Made by a program: the position numbers and the translations under genes. A stretch of 64,000 bases of DNA from an uncultured Verrucomicrobiae bacterium. Its GTDB lineage: Bacteria > Verrucomicrobiota > Verrucomicrobiia > Chthoniobacterales > UBA10450. Below are positions 7,452-63,070 of the stretch, in pieces. The notes beneath the pieces are model-generated. The model was given only the letters and a program-made list of their open reading frames with translations, searched no databases and was not told the DNA's origin. The stretch lies in NCBI GenBank assembly GCA_963834385.1, contig CAWIBO010000003.1, positions 64,001 through 128,000 of the forward strand, read 5' to 3'. The first letter of the stretch is position 1; each line of letters begins with the position of its first letter.

Positions 7452-7501
7452 TGTAGGGCGTCTGTGCCAGACGCCATGGCGTCTCGCAGAGACGCCCTAC
7501 A
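7452..7501. repeat. GTAG-REP inverted doublet, family A
   Basis: GTAG-GGCGTCTG-TGC-CAGACGCC-AT-GGCGTCTC-GCA-GAGACGCC-CTAC. Confidence 0.93.
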
Positions 7502-7964
7502 GGTCTTGTTCGTGGGTGCCAAGGGCGCCAGTTTCGCGGAAACCGGCCTGATAGGGCCAATCCATAACGTTTTGCACCAGCCCTGCCCGAACTGGATTCT
7601 CGCGGAGGTAAAGCCATTTCTCGTACGCAGATTCTTCGTGGCGGAGTAATCGATCAAAACCCCCTTCCTGCCACCGCCACTCTGGATGCTGATAGGTCTC
7701 GTTGAACCACCTTTTGAACCACTTCAAGAATTGAGAGACGCTGTGATCTCTCTCTCGCGGCGCCACTAAGAGGTGGAGATGGTCCGGCATCGCAAGCGCC
7801 GCAACCGCGGTCCAGCGCTCGAGCCGGGCAAGCGTGCAGGTGATGGCTTTCCAACATCCCGGGTTTGCCAGGACAGAGATGCGAGGCTGCACGGCGATGG
7901 TGAGAAAATAGATGATTTCAGAGCCGCTGGATAACAGGACAGGAATCCGAGGCGGCCTCGCCAT
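7497..7964 (-). CDS. REP-associated tyrosine transposase (RAYT/TnpA-REP, HUH Y1 family)
   Basis: YFLT, MPDHLHLL (HUH), WQEGGFDRLLR, YLRENPVRAGL (catalytic Tyr), DWPY; flanked both sides by REP doublets. Confidence 0.92.
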   Translation of the reverse strand: MARPPRIPVLLSSGSEIIYFLTIAVQPRISVLANPGCWKAITCTLARLERWTAVAALAMPDHLHLLVAPRERDHSVSQFLKWFKRWFNETYQHPEWRWQEGGFDRLLRHEESAYEKWLYLRENPVRAGLVQNVMDWPYQAGFRETGALGTHEQDL

Positions 7965-8007
7965 GAAGAAGTTTAGATGGCGGCGAAGTCGCCGCGCAAG
8001 CCCGCTT

Positions 8008-8057
8008 TGTAGGGCGCCTGTGCCAGGCGCCACGGCGTCTCGCAGAGACGCCCTACA
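8008..8057. repeat. GTAG-REP inverted doublet, family A
   Basis: GTAG-GGCGCCTG-TGC-CAGGCGCC-AC-GGCGTCTC-GCA-GAGACGCC-CTAC; compensatory change relative to the 7452 copy. Confidence 0.93.
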
Positions 8058-14006: not shown

Positions 14007-14057
14007 TCCCGGGTAGGGTGGGCGTCCCGCCCGCCGGTTTCGGCGTCTCGCCGAAAC
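14007..14057 (+). repeat. Solo double-hairpin GTAG-REP arm, family B (same as the alaS inserts)
   Basis: TCCCGGGTAGGGTGGGCGTCCCGCCCGCCGGTTTCGGCGTCTCGCCGAAAC immediately after the stop codon. Confidence 0.92.
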
Positions 14058-14101
14058 AATCTTTTCCGCCGCGACCCCGCCGAGTGGCAGAGTCAAAGTT
14101 C

Positions 14102-57763: not shown

Positions 57764-58802
57764 ATGGCCACGAAAACCGAAGAAAAATCGAGCGCGGACA
57801 AGGTGACCGCGGCCCGGAACAAGAATCTCGACCTTGCCCTCCAGCAAATCGCAAAGGATTACGGCGACGGCGCCATCATGCGCCTGGGGGATAGCAACAT
57901 TGTCGAAATCGATGTCATTCCCACAGGCAACATTTTGATCGACCGGGCCCTTGGCGTGGGCGGCTTTCCCCGAGGCCGGGTAGTGGAGGTCTACGGACCG
58001 GAATCATCCGGAAAGACCACGCTCACCCTGACGGTGATCGCGCAGGCGCAAAAGCGGGGTGGCCTTGCCGCCTTTGTTGATGTGGAACACGCCCTCGACC
58101 CGCAATACGCGCGGCGCCTGGGGGTGAACATGGACGACCTCCTCGTTTCCCAGCCCAGCTCGGGCGAGGAAGCGCTTCGCATCGTGGAAACTTTGGTCCG
58201 CTCCAATGCCCTCGACGTCATCGTGCTCGACTCCGTGGCCGCCCTCGTGACCAAGCAGGAACTCGAAGGGGAGATCGGCGATTCCACCGTCGGCGCCCAG
58301 GCCCGTCTGATGAGCGCGGCCATGCGCAAGCTGACCTCGCTCATCTCCAAGGCCCGCACCTGCTGCATTTTCACCAACCAGATCCGCGAAAAGATTGGCG
58401 TCATGTTCGGCAACCCCGAGACCACCCCCGGCGGCAAGGCGCTCAAATTCTACGCCAGCGTCCGGGTGGATATCCGCCGCATCGGCGCGATCAAGCAGAC
58501 CGACGGCGTGGTCACCGGGAACCGCACCCGCGTGAAGGTGGTGAAGAACAAGGTCGCGCCCCCGTTCACCGAGGCAGAGTTCGATATCATGTATAACGAG
58601 GGCATTTCCTCGACTGGCGCCCTGATCGATCTCGCCCTGGAAAAACAGATCATCGAGAAGCGCGGTTCCTGGCTCAGCTACAAGGGAACGCAGTTGGCGC
58701 AGGGTCGCGACGCGGCCAAGGAAGCGCTCAAGGCGGATGCCGGCCCTCTACGAGGAGATCGAAACCGCGGTCAAGGCGAAGCTCGACGAGGAAAAAGAAT
58801 AA
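57764..58802 (+). CDS. recA: Recombinase A (frameshift near 58743)
   Basis: [33 protein letters not shown]; corrected end [18 protein letters not shown]. Confidence 0.97.
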
Positions 58803-58809
58803 CGCCCAC

Positions 58810-59460
58810 CTATTGGAAGACGATTTCGGTCTCGAACTGACCCGCCGGCTGCCGGTGCAGCTCGAGAAATTTCGGCGCGATCTTCTCGGGATCAAAACGG
58901 GTCCCGGGTTTTACGAACCCGCCGATGGTGACGGTGGCGACATGAATTCCTTGGGGGGCAAGTTCGCGCGCCAGGACAAAAGCGAGGTTGCGGAGAGCGG
59001 CCTTGCCGATCCCCACGGAGGCGAACTGCGGCATCGGTTCGAGCGCCAGAATGCCGCCGGTGAAAAGAATGGTGCCGCGCCCCGCCTTTTTCATCCCTTC
59101 GAGAACGCAGCGGGTTGAGACCAGCGCACCGACCAGGCTGAGACGCAGATCCTCTTCGAGTTGTTCGGGGGAAAGCGCGCTAGCGGGCGCTTTGCGAAAG
59201 GCAAAGGCGTTGTAAACCAGAACCTCCGGCGCGCCCAGCTCGGCCTCGATCTGCCCGAAAACCGGGACCAGCTCGTCAGCCTTTGAGGCATCGGCCGCGA
59301 AGAAGCGCGCGCCGTTATCCTCCAGCTCCTTCAGTTGCTCTTCTTTGCCCGTGCGAGAACGCGCGACCAGCCCAAGCTGAAAACCCTCCCCGGCGAAGAC
59401 GCGGGCGATCGCATGGCCGTTCCCCGGTCCAAATCCGATAACTGCGCAGACTTTGCTCAT
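58810..59460 (-). CDS. Short-chain dehydrogenase/reductase
   Basis: [21 protein letters not shown] motifs. Confidence 0.85.
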
Positions 59461-59570
59461 CTCTCCCATGGTTCGTCCGGGAAAGGCAGGCGGATGAGCC
59501 AAACTGGCCTGAAAGCCCGGATTGGCCCGGCGCTTTACCCCGGCCCTGCGCCGCGTAATCTTCGCGCGTG

Positions 59571-62500
59571 ATGACCAGCGCGCAGATCCGGCAAAGCTTC
59601 CTCGATTTCTTTCGCGAGAAGCAGCACACCATTGTGCCCTCCTCCTCGCTCCTCCCGGATTCGCCCAACCTTCTTTTCACCAACGCCGGGATGAACCAGT
59701 TCGTCCCGATCTTTTTGGGGCAGCAATCCGCGCCCTGGTCGCCGCCGCGCACGGCCGATACGCAGAAGTGCATCCGGGCCGGCGGCAAACACAACGATCT
59801 CGATGATGTCGGGCTCGATACGTATCACCACACGTTCTTCGAGATGCTGGGGAACTGGAGCTTTGGCGATTACTTCAAGAAGGAGGCCATCGAATGGGCC
59901 TGGGAACTGGTGGTGGAGAATTGGAAACTGCCGCCGGCGCGCCTTTACGCGACGGTTTACCGGCCGGGCCCGGGCGATCCCGCGGAGTTCGATCAGGAGG
60001 CGCACGATCACTGGGCGCGTTTGTTTAAGAAGGCGGGGCTCGATCCCGCGGTGCAGATCGTGGACGGCAACAAGAAGGACAACTTTTGGATGATGGGCGA
60101 GACCGGCCCGTGCGGACCGTGCAGCGAGCTGCACATCGACCTGACGCCGGACGGCGACACGAAAGGTGCGCTCGTGAACATGGGCGACGCCCGCTGCATC
60201 GAGATCTGGAACCTCGTCTTCATCCAGTTCAACGCCAACGCCGATGGCACATTCGTTCCGCTGCCCGCACGCCACGTCGATACCGGGATGGGTTTCGAAC
60301 GCGTCACCGCCATGATCCAGGGGACGAAAAATTTCACCGATTTCAGCGGCATCATCTCAAATTACGAGACCGATGTCTTCCGCCCGATCTTCGACGAGAT
60401 CGAAAAGCAGAGCGGCAAACGGTATAGGAGCACATTGCCCGTCCCGGGTAGGGTGGGCGTCCCGCCCGCCGGTTCAGGCGTCCCGCCTGAACGAACTTTC
60501 GCACCTGAACAAAGGACCGCGCCCCAGGCGCAAAAGACCGGGCTGCAAGATGCAGCCCTCGGCGGGCAGGATGCCCACCCTACCCGGGACAATGCCCGCG
60601 CCACGTCAGATCAGCTCGCCACCGACATCGCGTTTCGGGTTATCGCCGATCATATCCGCACCCTCAGCTTTGCCATCGCCGACGGCATCCAGCCCGGGAA
60701 CGAAGGCCGCGGCTATGTCCTGCGCCGCATCCTGCAGGCGCGCCGTCCGCTACGGCCGCACCCTCGGCTTCCACGAGCCCTTTTTCTCCAAATTGGTCGG
60801 CGTGCTCGTCCGCAGCCTGGGCGATGTCTTCCCCGAGCTGCGCGAGAAGCAGGTCACAATCGAGGAAACATTGAAACGCGAGGAAGAGTCGTTCAACAGA
60901 ACCCTCGACCGCGGCATCGAACTCTTCGAGCGCGAAGCCGCGCGCCTCTCGGGTAGGGTGGGCGTCCCGCCCGCCGGTTCAGGCGTCTCGCCTGAACAAA
61001 CTTCCGAACCCACCAAAGGCGCCACCTACACCCGTCGCCGTCGTCTCCCTCATTTCGAGCAACCATGGGCCCTCTACGCCTTGACCATTTCGACCGCCAA
61101 CCGCCGCAAACTGCCGCCGGAGTCGCGCACCATCGTCCTGGACGCCCTGCGCCATTTCGACGAATCGCGCTATACGCTTATCGCCGCCTGCGTCATGCCC
61201 GACCACATCCACGCTCTTCTCCAGCCGTGGCCAAAAGAACAGAACGAGCAGGGCGAAACGGTTTTCTGGTCGCTCAGCGAGCTGATGCACTCGCTCAAAT
61301 CATTCACGGCCAAGGAGATCAATAAGGCCGAAGGCACAACAGGCCCGGTCTGGGAGCAGGAACGGTTTGATCGCTATGTGCGTGGCGACCGGGACCTGGA
61401 GGAGAAGTTTCAGTATATCGTGACCAATCCTGAGCGGGAGGGGCTCGGGACGGACTATCCCTGGGTTTGGACTCGGGAAGATCGTTCAGGCAGGATGCCT
61501 GAACCGGCGGGCGGGACGCCCACCCTACCCGGGAGTGGAGAATCCGCCGCTCATGTCATCTCCGGTGAGTTCGCTTTCCGGCTTTACGACGAACAGGGAT
61601 TTCCGCTCGATCTCACGGAGTTGATGGCGCGCGAACGCGGTCTCACCGTTGACACCGCCGGTTTCGAGAAGCTGATGGAGGAACAGCGAACGCGGGCGCG
61701 CGCGGCGCAAAAGAAGACAACGATCGAGTTGGCGGAAGGCAGCGAAGCGGACGCACGCACCAACTTTCTCGGTTACGAGCACGACCATACCGGCGCCGAC
61801 GTGGAAGCCGTGACCCCGGCCAAGGGAAAGACTGCCGTTATTCTGAACAACACCGTTTGCTACGCGGAGATGGGCGGACAGGTCGGCGACACCGGGGAGC
61901 TGGCCGCGGGCGAGAAACGCTGGCGCATCCTCGATACCCGCAAGGCCGGCCACGCCTGGGTCCATCTCGTGGACAACGCCGACGCCCTCGCCCCGGGCGC
62001 GCACGTCACCGTGCGCTACGACGCCACCCGGCGGCGCGCCATTGAACGGCATCACACCGTGACCCATCTGCTGCACTGGGCGCTGCATGAGATCGTCTCG
62101 CGCGAAGCCGTGCAAAAGGGCAGCTATGTGGGCCCGGAAAAGCTCACCTTTGATTTCTCGAGCGCGCCCCTGAGCAAAGACCAGGTGGCCGCGGTGGAAA
62201 AAAGGGTCAACGAACGGATCGCGGAAAACGCCCCGGTTTCGTGGACGGAGATTCCCTACGCCGAGGCCAGGAAGCGCGAGCGATATCCAGCAATTTTTCG
62301 GCGACAAATACGGCGAAAAAGTCCGGGTGGTGCAGATCGGCGGCAAGGCGGGAGAATTGAACGGCTACTCGATGGAACTCTGCGGCGGCACCCATGTGCG
62401 CGCCACGGGCGAGCTGGGCTGGTTCAAGATCACTGGTGAAGCCGCCATCGCCGCCGGTATCCGGCGCATCGAGGCTGTCGCGGGCACGGCCGTGGCCGAC

Positions 62501-63070
62501 TGGGCCCGGACGGAAAGTGCCCGTCAGGACGAGCGTTTCTCCGGTTTGCTGCGCAAGAAAAATGAGCTGCCGCCGTTGCCGGAGATCCGGCAATGGGATC
62601 AACCGGCGACGTTACTGGAAGAGATCGAGGCCCGGGCGACGCATTTGCGCCGACTCGAAGGCGAGGTGCACGACTGGGAAAAACAGCAGGCCAAGGCGGC
62701 CGAATCCGCGTTGCAACAGCGCGCCGCTGCGGTCGCGGAGGAGCTGGCCGGGAGCCTGGCCGGGGCGACGTCGTGCGTGGCCCATGTGCCGGAGGCTGAA
62801 GGCAACCTGCTCCAGGCCGTGGCTGACCTTCTCAAGACCCGGGTGCCGGGCCCGGTGGTCCTGGCCGGCTCGCACGACGGCCGGGTGCACCTGGTGGCGA
62901 ACGTGCCGAAGGGCGTGACCCCCGGGGCCAATCAGATCATTCAGGAGATGGCGCCGTTGGTGGGGGGCAAAGGGGGCGGCCGCCCGGAAAACGCCCGGGG
63001 CTCAGGGAAAGACGTTAGCCGGATCGACGAGGCCCTGGCAAAGGCGCGGCTGCTGCTCGGGCTCGCCTAA
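59571..63070 (+). CDS. alaS: Alanine--tRNA ligase with two in-frame REP-bound insertions (frameshifts near 60735 and 62280, likely errors)
   Basis: [77 protein letters not shown] motifs. Confidence 0.95.
60441..60590. mobile_element. 150-bp non-autonomous REPIN-like element (family B), in frame in alaS
   Basis: 31-bp terminal inverted repeats with 2 mismatches; inner hairpins TTCAGGCG-TCC-CGCCTGAA and GGGCTGCA-AGA-TGCAGCCC. Confidence 0.88.
60951..61530 (+). mobile_element. REP-flanked RAYT (HUH Y1 transposase) cassette, family B, fused in frame within alaS
   Basis: 47-bp inverted arms (60951-60997, 61484-61530); [38 protein letters not shown]; no internal stop. Confidence 0.92.

Follow-up and report, generated by a model that had tools for sequence, protein, structure and literature searches.

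The alaS gene (alanyl-tRNA synthetase) in a 64,000-nt stretch of contig CAWIBO010000003.1, from an uncultured Verrucomicrobiae bacterium (genome G000; the whole stretch is referred to as the window), contains a complete REP-flanked RAYT transposase of the Y1/HUH type that is read in the frame of alaS. We consider it fairly probable that this REP-RAYT-REP cassette is a host-translated, non-splicing, intein-like REPtron, whose translation and activity we infer. Judged by the sequences of its relatives, the alaS case is one instance of a widespread RAYT habit in Verrucomicrobia and not a one-off.

The cassette, designated insert 2, spans positions 60946..61535 on the plus strand, with ends that are uncertain by a few nucleotides because no close empty allele is available. 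An inverted-arm search delimits two 60-nt arms, at 60946-61005 (+) and 61476-61535 (−), with 90% complementarity; an earlier reading of this DNA from its letters alone (the sequence-only reading) had described 47-bp arms with three mismatches, a count that agrees with ours, and the arms extend to 60 nt. Both arms are translated. The left one is a GTAG-tagged double hairpin that matches the REP family and encodes residues predicted to be disordered (pLDDT <50), and the right one is an inverted copy that matches the REP core. This 25-nt core (GGGTAGGG...CGCC) occurs with 0 mismatches at 60951-60975 (+) and 61506-61530 (−) and has five matches in the window, versus 0.00 expected by chance. The motif TCYC stands next to GGGTAGGG at both cassette ends and therefore probably belongs to the element. 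Between the arms lies the folded RAYT core (61072..61491, +; residues 41-180 of the 201-aa insert model, as delimited by AlphaFold2, Foldseek, and NF047646), which includes the HUH motif (His-Ile-His, CAC ATC CAC, 61204..61212, +) and the catalytic tyrosine of QYIVTNP (61414..61416, +), both read from the sequence in the cassette frame and both intact in the frame of alaS at the positions first given for them.

A single open frame, 60373-62439, holds the cassette and matches AlaRS Pfam models on both flanks as well as Y1_Tnp. The insert adds ~195-200 aa between FEREAARLS and VISGEFAF, close to the ~190 aa originally estimated, at a site that corresponds approximately to residues 382-391 (AKLSGDTLDG) of the Escherichia coli AlaRS fragment 3HXZ and where the linker is only 16-36 aa long in most relatives without an insert. 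It has neither a stop codon nor a usable start of its own and follows the alaS frame throughout; the sole in-frame ATG 5' of the HUH motif encodes the Met of VMPDHIH, which precedes the motif by three codons and comes too late for the domain. The inverted GTAG REPs at its flanks are also dispersed genome-wide, as is characteristic of a RAYT, whereas the gene is not free-standing and extragenic, as RAYTs are, and lies in frame inside alaS.

To assign the inserted domain, we used profile and structure searches. NCBIfam NF047646 (REP_Tyr_transpos) matches insert 2 with 79.4 bits (cut-off 80; E 2.4e-22) over profile positions 4-138 of 146, and a free-standing relative (L069) reaches 85.4 bits, above the same cut-off of 80; Pfam PF01797 (Y1_Tnp) gives 22.9 bits here (cut-off 23), with relatives reaching 49 bits. 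For insert 2 both profile matches are significant and fall just short of their cut-offs. An IS200/IS605 insertion sequence was considered and rejected, the corresponding NCBIfam model (IS200, NF033573) yielding 20.5 bits versus a cut-off of 55. The core blocks of the AlphaFold2 insert model have pLDDT values of 86-98, and Foldseek ranks the E. coli RAYT structure 4ER8_A first (E 3.9e-7, probability 1.00, TM 0.50/0.59), followed by the IS200/IS608/ISDra2 TnpA structures. The fold search was needed, as a sequence-only search of the PDB with a six-sequence profile returned 2FYX alone (E 0.0027). Across 71 aligned RAYT domains, the second His of the HUH motif never varies, and conservation of the first reaches at least 90%; the catalytic Tyr (Y155), located within helix 145-162 of the model, is likewise invariant. 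These results bear out the RAYT identity proposed from the letters. G000 contains one RAYT of this clade, its other Y1 matches being 30-48% identical.

The host gene extends from 59568 to 63070 (+), as defined by its ORFs and by Pfam PF01411, PF07973, and PF02272, and as assembled it lies in three frames (59568-60956, 60373-62439, and 62327-63070) and not in one ORF. Comparison with relatives shows that two 1-nt insertions account for this state: relative to five in-frame relatives, there is one extra base near 60736 (+1 frame break at 60733..60739, +) and another near 62282 (second +1 frame break at 62279..62285, +). In the same genome, metH also has two frame changes and leuS is interrupted as well. 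Because both alaS breaks are 1-nt insertions and metH and leuS are similarly hit, the breaks are probably assembly errors; a recent break of the gene itself is a less likely alternative. The sequence-only reading, correct in what it described, had overlooked this three-frame state, along with a second in-frame insert in alaS (insert 1) and the recurrence of the arrangement elsewhere.

The two frame breaks, together with an estimated genome completeness of 89.6%, could be taken to mean that the arrangement is an artefact of misassembly, or that alaS is a dying gene whose function is supplied from elsewhere. This explanation is largely refuted, and we regard it as exceedingly improbable: the in-frame architecture recurs in dozens of independent assemblies, no second alaS was found in G000, and frame changes likewise affect metH and leuS in this assembly. 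Short metagenome contigs from other runs, in three DNA datasets of a single soil study (the window likewise derives from a soil bacterium), agree with the assembled joins: the passage from alaS into the REP of insert 1 is reproduced exactly, one contig bridging this left junction with 0 differences, and alaS sequence continues into the left arm of insert 2. These contigs give thin cover that extends over neither frame break nor the whole cassette, and none of them shows a joint that skips it. Of the refuting outcomes named by the sequence-only reading, none was observed, an HMM having assigned the insert to the RAYTs.

Insert 1 is a RAYT-less inverted REP pair (REPIN-like) of 150 nt, or 50 codons, at 60441..60590 (+), in frame within the AlaRS catalytic region, between Pfam positions 263 and 264. 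Its arms (60441-60471 and 60560-60590; 31 nt, 94%) belong to the same REP family as those of insert 2, with core matches at 60446 (+) and 60561 (−), and in other genomes its site is occupied by a full RAYT (loci L139, L140, L144, and L124). A single extragenic REP of the family is found at 14011..14070 (+), directly after a stop codon. The family forms a small population of 24 copies in G000, and the second hairpin of these copies occurs as at least nine different stems, all of them complementary through compensatory changes. The genome has eight paired elements, counting the cassette, and a long open frame runs through each of them. For seven the gene could be identified (alaS, dnaE, or a double UvrA), and the eighth lies in an unnamed 316-aa frame; thrS holds a single REP of the family. 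Insert 1 and both arms of insert 2 are thus intragenic REPs, and the family is also in frame in dnaE, the double UvrA, and thrS.

RNA folding indicates that the arms of insert 2 can pair as a stem of >50 bp, with the RAYT sequence enclosed between them (MFE −293.8 kcal/mol, z −6.9 vs. shuffles). Such a stem would suit a scheme in which the mature enzyme lacks the insert owing to its earlier removal, by RNA excision via the arm hairpin, translational bypass, protein splicing, or partial excision at the DNA level; moreover, RAYT-type enzymes reportedly cut at REP ends. We judge removal very unlikely, since an RNA-level route needs no stop-free, in-phase insert, yet in every complete case examined the insert is free of stops and keeps the phase of the host sequence that follows it. 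A test for an intein (a Hint splicing domain, Cys/Ser/Thr at both junctions, and a terminal His-Asn) was negative as well, in agreement with the original remark that splicing motifs are lacking: Pfam shows only tRNA-synt_2c and Y1_Tnp, and the junctions, which read ...RLS|GRVG... and ...TLPG|SGES... (Gly...Gly|Ser), lack the required residues.

To place the alaS cassette in context, we surveyed its relatives. The AlaRS alignment shows a RAYT at the same site in 6 of 35 sequences, representing six genera. In five relatives AlaRS and RAYT occupy one open frame of 1114-1329 aa, that of G000 being split by its two breaks, and a relative with a 100% complete genome (G020) has the RAYT-bearing alaS and no other. 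When the 150 best family matches were taken from 201 genomes of the family, 131 proved to fall within open frames that reach 430 aa or more. At E <= 1e-20 there are 1129 matches among independently called proteins, which measure 353-2000 aa and have the Pfam architectures of AlaRS, ThrRS, RecG, or MetH, and JGI auto-annotation names include [quoted passage not shown] The in-frame hosts of the clade are alaS (many Verrucomicrobiota, same loop), thrS, recG, metH, carB, leuS, pyruvate formate-lyase, and an MmeI-like enzyme, and the loops used comprise two sites each in AlaRS and MetH and others in ThrRS, RecG, LeuRS, and CarB. The same loop is occupied across several orders of Verrucomicrobiota, and the host-embedded state seems to be the usual one in Chthoniobacterales. 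A phylum-wide sample gave matches at E <= 1e-25 in 6 of 401 genomes and is hardly informative, the clade being concentrated in a few families; representatives at 50% identity gave 329 matches at E <= 1e-30, and the 150 best of these include 44 that reach 400 aa, with length a poor guide here because many of the remaining entries are fragments. What had been taken for a singular event is instead a habit of the lineage, which uses several hosts and repeatedly returns to the same loops. The accompanying suggestion that the element shelters in an essential gene is weakened, because the hosts include the probably non-essential MmeI-like restriction-modification enzyme and pyruvate formate-lyase.

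The dN/dS of the RAYT part, a check that the sequence-only reading had proposed, is 0.047-0.29 in 11 of 11 pairs, compared with 0.14-0.32 for the host part; the RAYT domain is under purifying selection and conserved as a translated domain. In the RAYT tree, host labels cluster (18 changes vs. 57 when shuffled), and G000 falls in a clade of 5 alaS, 14 thrS, and 1 other RAYT (SH-aLRT 98). A single origin of the alaS-embedded RAYTs is rejected (AU p 1.5e-30, in a test grouped by host gene and run after the tree was seen). The alaS RAYTs do not form a single clade, which means that colonisation or refilling of the loop has happened repeatedly. Genomes G612 and G613 have RAYTs in both alaS and thrS, each gene with a different RAYT/REP lineage, which rules out mutual exclusion between the two sites. 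Recent intragenomic copy-and-paste was not detected: the alaS, metH, and recG RAYTs of G108 and the RAYTs of G095 are 59-67% identical at the nucleotide level, while between G108 and G095 the orthologous copies in alaS share 97.9% identity.

Strong purifying selection and long persistence in the same loop across several Verrucomicrobiota orders would also fit an exapted domain, in which the RAYT fold serves the host proteins (e.g., in nucleic-acid binding or regulation) and is no longer a REP transposase; RAYTs are generally seen as domesticated single-copy genes (Bertels et al. 2017, PMC5581495). Exaptation nevertheless appears unlikely, given that occupancy is patchy among close relatives (the 6 of 35 aligned AlaRS), that the hosts (AlaRS, ThrRS, RecG, MetH, CarB, PFL, and the MmeI-like enzyme) are unrelated and have no obvious common need, that genome-specific REP arms matching the dispersed REPs are kept, and that RAYT lineages replace one another at one site. 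The AlaRS loop is also an indel hot spot, with unrelated inserts of 40-130 aa in G008, G009, G010, G016, G019, and G028. A loop that accepts insertions, combined with the difficulty of clean removal, could therefore retain the cassette as a tolerated passenger, selected only to be folded and harmless, with a transposase that is dead or irrelevant; the small REP population and the lack of detectable recent intragenomic copies agree with this. The purifying selection and the conserved residues could stem in part from keeping an inserted domain folded and not from catalysis. We nonetheless hold a mere passenger to be improbable, since folding alone requires neither the Tyr and second HUH His that are invariant in the 71 domains nor the first His that is conserved in at least 90% of them, the REP arms are near-perfect relative to the dispersed REPs (0 mismatches in the 25-nt core), and the loop has been colonised repeatedly.

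We therefore return to the host-translated, non-splicing REPtron as the preferred explanation. The cassette would sit in a permissive surface linker within the helical tRNA-recognition part of AlaRS, having given up its own start and stop, so that the ribosome making AlaRS would also make the transposase as an internal domain. The translated REP arms would supply Gly/Pro/Ala-rich flexible linkers, which would let the HUH core fold independently. The tethered RAYT may then bind and cut REP hairpins in single-stranded DNA and may thereby maintain the small REP/REPIN population of the genome. The element would persist since its expression comes from the host and since any loss other than an exact in-frame one would disable the host gene. 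In the short term the cassette would be inherited with the host gene, and in the long term cassettes of different RAYT/REP lineages would enter and be lost from one small set of docking loops. More tentatively, and as a possibility that we would not yet favor, these elements might form a distinct mobile class of translation-dependent REPtrons that home as RAYT-plus-REP units into a few docking loops of large conserved proteins, with the RAYT itself carrying out insertion and precise replacement on single-stranded DNA.

Inteins and homing-endonuclease introns are selfish in-frame elements of conserved, often essential, multidomain proteins; they are expressed by the host, are patchily distributed, and reuse their sites. 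The cassette resembles inteins by analogy, as an in-frame selfish coding element with host expression, patchiness, and site reuse. It differs from them in that it has no splicing domain or junction residues and apparently stays in the mature protein, and in that it encodes an HUH transposase and not a homing endonuclease. IS200/IS605 TnpA proteins have the Y1 HUH fold and perform hairpin-guided chemistry on single-stranded DNA, and IStrons avoid harming the genes they enter. The cassette shares the fold and would share the hairpin-guided chemistry and the avoidance of harm; neither TnpB nor an intron was seen with it, and its neutrality would be achieved by in-frame translation, unlike that of IStrons, which depends on RNA splicing.

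The closest relatives are the described REPtrons (E. coli YafM, PDB 4ER8; Bertels 2017, PMC5581495; Corneloup 2021, PMC8266576), with which the cassette shares a Y1 fold with HUH and Tyr, inverted GTAG REP hairpins on both sides, dispersal of the same REPs, one copy per REP family per genome, and mostly vertical inheritance between close relatives. Whereas the described RAYTs are free-standing and extragenic, the alaS cassette lacks its own start and stop, its REP arms are translated, and the unit is internal to a host protein. Intragenic REPs and Rickettsia palindromic elements, as covered by the available part of Di Nocera 2013 (PMC3733652), are also palindromic repeats in frame in housekeeping genes; insert 1 belongs with them, as do the REPINs in dnaE, UvrA, and thrS. 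The repeats described in that part are short and encode 20-80 aa, and it mentions no full transposase between repeats that is read with the host. In the literature outside subscription journals and bioRxiv supplements, we found intragenic REPs and no description of an embedded RAYT.

Earlier descriptions present RAYTs as single-copy, free-standing, domesticated transposases and place REPs outside genes; in the present case the transposase seems to be produced solely as an internal domain of housekeeping enzymes. According to Quentin 2018 (PMC6006769), "unexpectedly long proteins" were set aside in surveys of Y1 transposases because they were taken for fusions or annotation errors, and embedded RAYTs, if our reading is correct, would explain such proteins. 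This reading would also mean that natural insertions of ~200-aa domains are tolerated in aminoacyl-tRNA synthetases, RecG, and MetH, which would be useful for protein engineering, and that the role of RAYTs becomes testable via natural fusions with host-tied expression. Should the more tentative homing proposal hold, it would represent a DNA-level counterpart of intein homing without splicing, and RAYTs, held to be immobile and domesticated, could still move as units. More generally, host-translated REPtrons would join introns and inteins as a third means by which selfish genes reside in essential genes, one that dispenses with splicing.

The alaS gene of the window (59568-63070, + strand) contains two foreign segments. 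The larger, insert 2, is bounded by 60-nt inverted arms at 60946-61005 and 61476-61535 that are 90% complementary and whose 25-nt cores (60951 on the + strand, 61506 on the - strand) are identical; this core has five matches in the window against 0.00 expected by chance. The stretch enclosed by the arms encodes, in the alaS frame, a Y1 transposase domain that has an HIH (HUH) motif at 61204-61212 and the tyrosine of QYIVTNP at 61414-61416, both on the + strand. The sequence-only reading had proposed a REP-flanked RAYT cassette at 60951..61530, and its coordinates, mismatch count, and motifs all proved correct when checked on the sequence. The smaller segment, insert 1 (60441-60590), consists of two inverted REPs of the same family that together span 150 nt, likewise in the alaS frame and lacking a transposase. 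Insert 2 stands in place of a short linker (site 2) that matches the E. coli AlaRS fragment 3HXZ at approximately residues 382-391, AKLSGDTLDG; insert 1 interrupts the AlaRS Pfam domain between its positions 263 and 264 (site 1). As RNA, the arms of insert 2 are able to pair as a stem of >50 bp (z -6.9).

The NCBIfam profile REP_Tyr_transpos matches insert 2 at E 2.4e-22 with 79.4 bits, 0.6 below its cut-off; the IS200 profile gives 20.5 bits, and Pfam Y1_Tnp scores 22.9 bits (cut-off 23) for insert 2 and up to 49 bits for its relatives. An AlphaFold2 model built with 71 homologues has a confident core at residues 41-180, mostly with pLDDT >90, and low pLDDT in the residues that the REP arms encode. 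The closest PDB fold is 4ER8_A, the E. coli RAYT with a bound REP hairpin (E 3.9e-7), followed by the TnpA proteins of IS200, ISDra2, and IS608. The arms belong to a 24-copy REP family in the genome, characterized by a GTAG tag, a constant first hairpin, and a second-hairpin stem that varies with compensatory changes; the alaS copy is the only RAYT of this clade in the genome. Profile, fold, arms, dispersed REPs, and single clade copy together fit the signature of a REPtron (a RAYT gene with its two inverted REPs); however, one defining feature is absent, since the gene is not free-standing. The alaS insert is a real feature rather than an artefact, a REPtron in frame within its host gene, and its anatomy is well supported.

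The assembled alaS undergoes two frame changes, each due to one base more than in five relatives whose alaS is in frame. We consider these breaks quite probably consensus errors. The metH gene of the same assembly (G000:C5:744904-748772), which has no RAYT insert, also contains two frame changes, supporting a rate of about one indel error per few kb; recG, thrS, and carB contain none, and leuS is interrupted. No second alaS was found in this genome, whose assembly comprises five contigs and is 89.6% complete. The final ~35 residues of the recA product (window 57764-58840, + strand) appear unlike RecA, which may reflect another single-base assembly error.

Each of the eight inverted-pair elements of the REP family, counting the cassette, spans a long open frame. 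Named genes host seven of these: two in alaS, one in dnaE (G000:C2:562077-565517, L151), and four, all in frame, in a 2101-aa frame with two UvrA-like halves (G000:C2:783349-789651, L152); the eighth is in an unnamed 316-aa frame. One single REP lies inside a ~135-nt insert of thrS (G000:C5:159086-161233, L155), at the position that a complete same-clade RAYT occupies in relatives, and resembles a remnant or a vacant docking site. The six remaining single REPs follow stop codons or lie in short frames (e.g., window 14011). A different in-frame RAYT-like domain (RNLPHW...VMPNHVHVL...YFDR) occurs in leuS (G000:C2:733557-735692; ~3555-5693 of L064, - strand), with similar peptide repeats (EHGFSSRED..VENPGS) on either side; here YIAMNP, the Tyr motif, falls in a second frame and the C-terminal part of LeuRS in a third, reflecting either assembly indels or decay. 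The window also encodes a conventional stand-alone RAYT-like gene, a 178-aa Y1/HUH-like ORF at 7497-8033 on the - strand (AMPDHLHLLV ... FDRLLR ... YLRENP) with just ~35% identity to the alaS insert.

We aligned 35 AlaRS sequences of the family and order. A RAYT occupies precisely site 2 in six of them (G000, the genome studied here, G004, G007, G020, G021, and G024; five without G007, an unpublished genome), and these represent six different genera. In the five relatives the gene is a single open frame of 1114-1329 aa, whereas our copy is split by the two breaks. The carriers share 43-70% identity in their RAYT parts and 67-80% in the remaining AlaRS. In four other genomes (G008, G009, G010, and G016; L025, L023, L026, and L030), site 2 is filled by a different insert of 50-65 aa; these inserts are alike among themselves (...W(R)xF....P.(I/V)SG) and show no REP or RAYT features. 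The site 2 loop is generally prone to indels.

A profile built from the six inserts matches 160 of 201 family genomes at E <= 1e-10. The best 150 matches, four of which come from G151, G171, and G188 (unpublished genomes), comprise 131 whose open frames measure 430-1663 aa and 19 whose frames reach 361 aa at most. We sampled 20 places, 18 picked for long open frames and two for free-standing size, a selection owing to which the host split is no measure of embedding frequency: recG (9), metH (5), thrS (2), carB (1), leuS (1, that of our genome), and free-standing ORFs (2). The metH copies occupy two inter-domain sites, both of which are filled in one gene (L052, G048:C11).

Scanning one genome per GTDB species revealed >487 relatives. 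Nearly all of the best 80 loci come from MAGs labelled Verrucomicrobiota (Chthoniobacterales, Udaeobacter, Limisphaerales, Opitutaceae, and Pedosphaera). The RAYT-bearing frames at these loci are in alaS (29), recG (27), thrS (15), and leuS (2). Ten frames lacked a BLAST host; seven of them measure 197-271 aa and another 337 aa, and Pfam later placed the remaining two in a pyruvate formate-lyase and an MmeI-like restriction-modification enzyme. Precomputed Pfam annotation alone adds PF01555, a DNA methylase family, and PF00202, an aminotransferase (entries for these four additional hosts: L141, L096, P0019, P0024, and P0044); thus, hosts are not confined to essential genes. Most alaS cassettes are at site 2, with site 1 occupied in L139, L140, L144, and L124, the last being one alaS with RAYTs at both sites. 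In five seemingly free-standing relatives (L069, L070, L087, L107, and L108; 217-229 aa), the frame runs through both REP arms, in some cases from a start only a few codons ahead of the left arm. REPs appear always to lie within the coding frame in this RAYT clade.

Independent gene calls include 1129 proteins of 353-2000 aa that match the insert at E <= 1e-20, several with the JGI name 'alanyl-tRNA synthetase/REP element-mobilizing transposase RayT'. The composite is thus visible in automatic database names, yet unremarked: full-text literature searches and RAYT/REP papers yielded no description of an embedded RAYT. The intragenic REPs reported in the consulted passages of Di Nocera et al. 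(PMC3733652) include those in uvrA genes of Opitutus terrae, with no embedded transposase in that account, and Quentin et al. 2018 (PMC6006769) state that unexpectedly long TnpA-Y1 proteins were dropped as gene fusions or annotation errors.

dN/dS is 0.047-0.29 for the RAYT part in 11 of 11 pairs and 0.14-0.32 for the host part, ratios that are rough because dS is high (0.6-2.1). In a tree of 107 RAYT domains, host genes are strongly clustered (18 changes vs 57 with shuffled labels) and no host forms a single clade; forcing the 36 alaS rows into one group lowers the log-likelihood by 459 units (AU p 1.5e-30). Our RAYT and four other alaS copies are nested in a mostly-thrS clade with the same REP type (SH-aLRT 98), and in G612 and G613 thrS and alaS hold two different RAYT/REP lineages. 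RAYT copies across the hosts of one genome share just 59-67% DNA identity, against 97.9% for orthologous alaS copies of two congeners. These results indicate that inheritance of the cassettes is vertical in the short run, with gain, loss, and refilling of the same loops in the long run.

Removal of the insert at the RNA or protein level is unlikely, since every complete copy is stop-free and in the downstream host phase, and insert 2 has no intein signature. The sequence comparisons establish that the frame runs on through the insert, that the catalytic residues are intact, that purifying selection acts on the domain, and that the arrangement recurs with reuse of the same sites. We infer that the RAYT would be translated with AlaRS as an additional domain, the REP-encoded segments serving as flexible linkers, and that its target may be REP hairpins in single-stranded DNA. 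The element would persist because its expression is supplied by the host and because no deletion other than an exact in-frame one would be viable.
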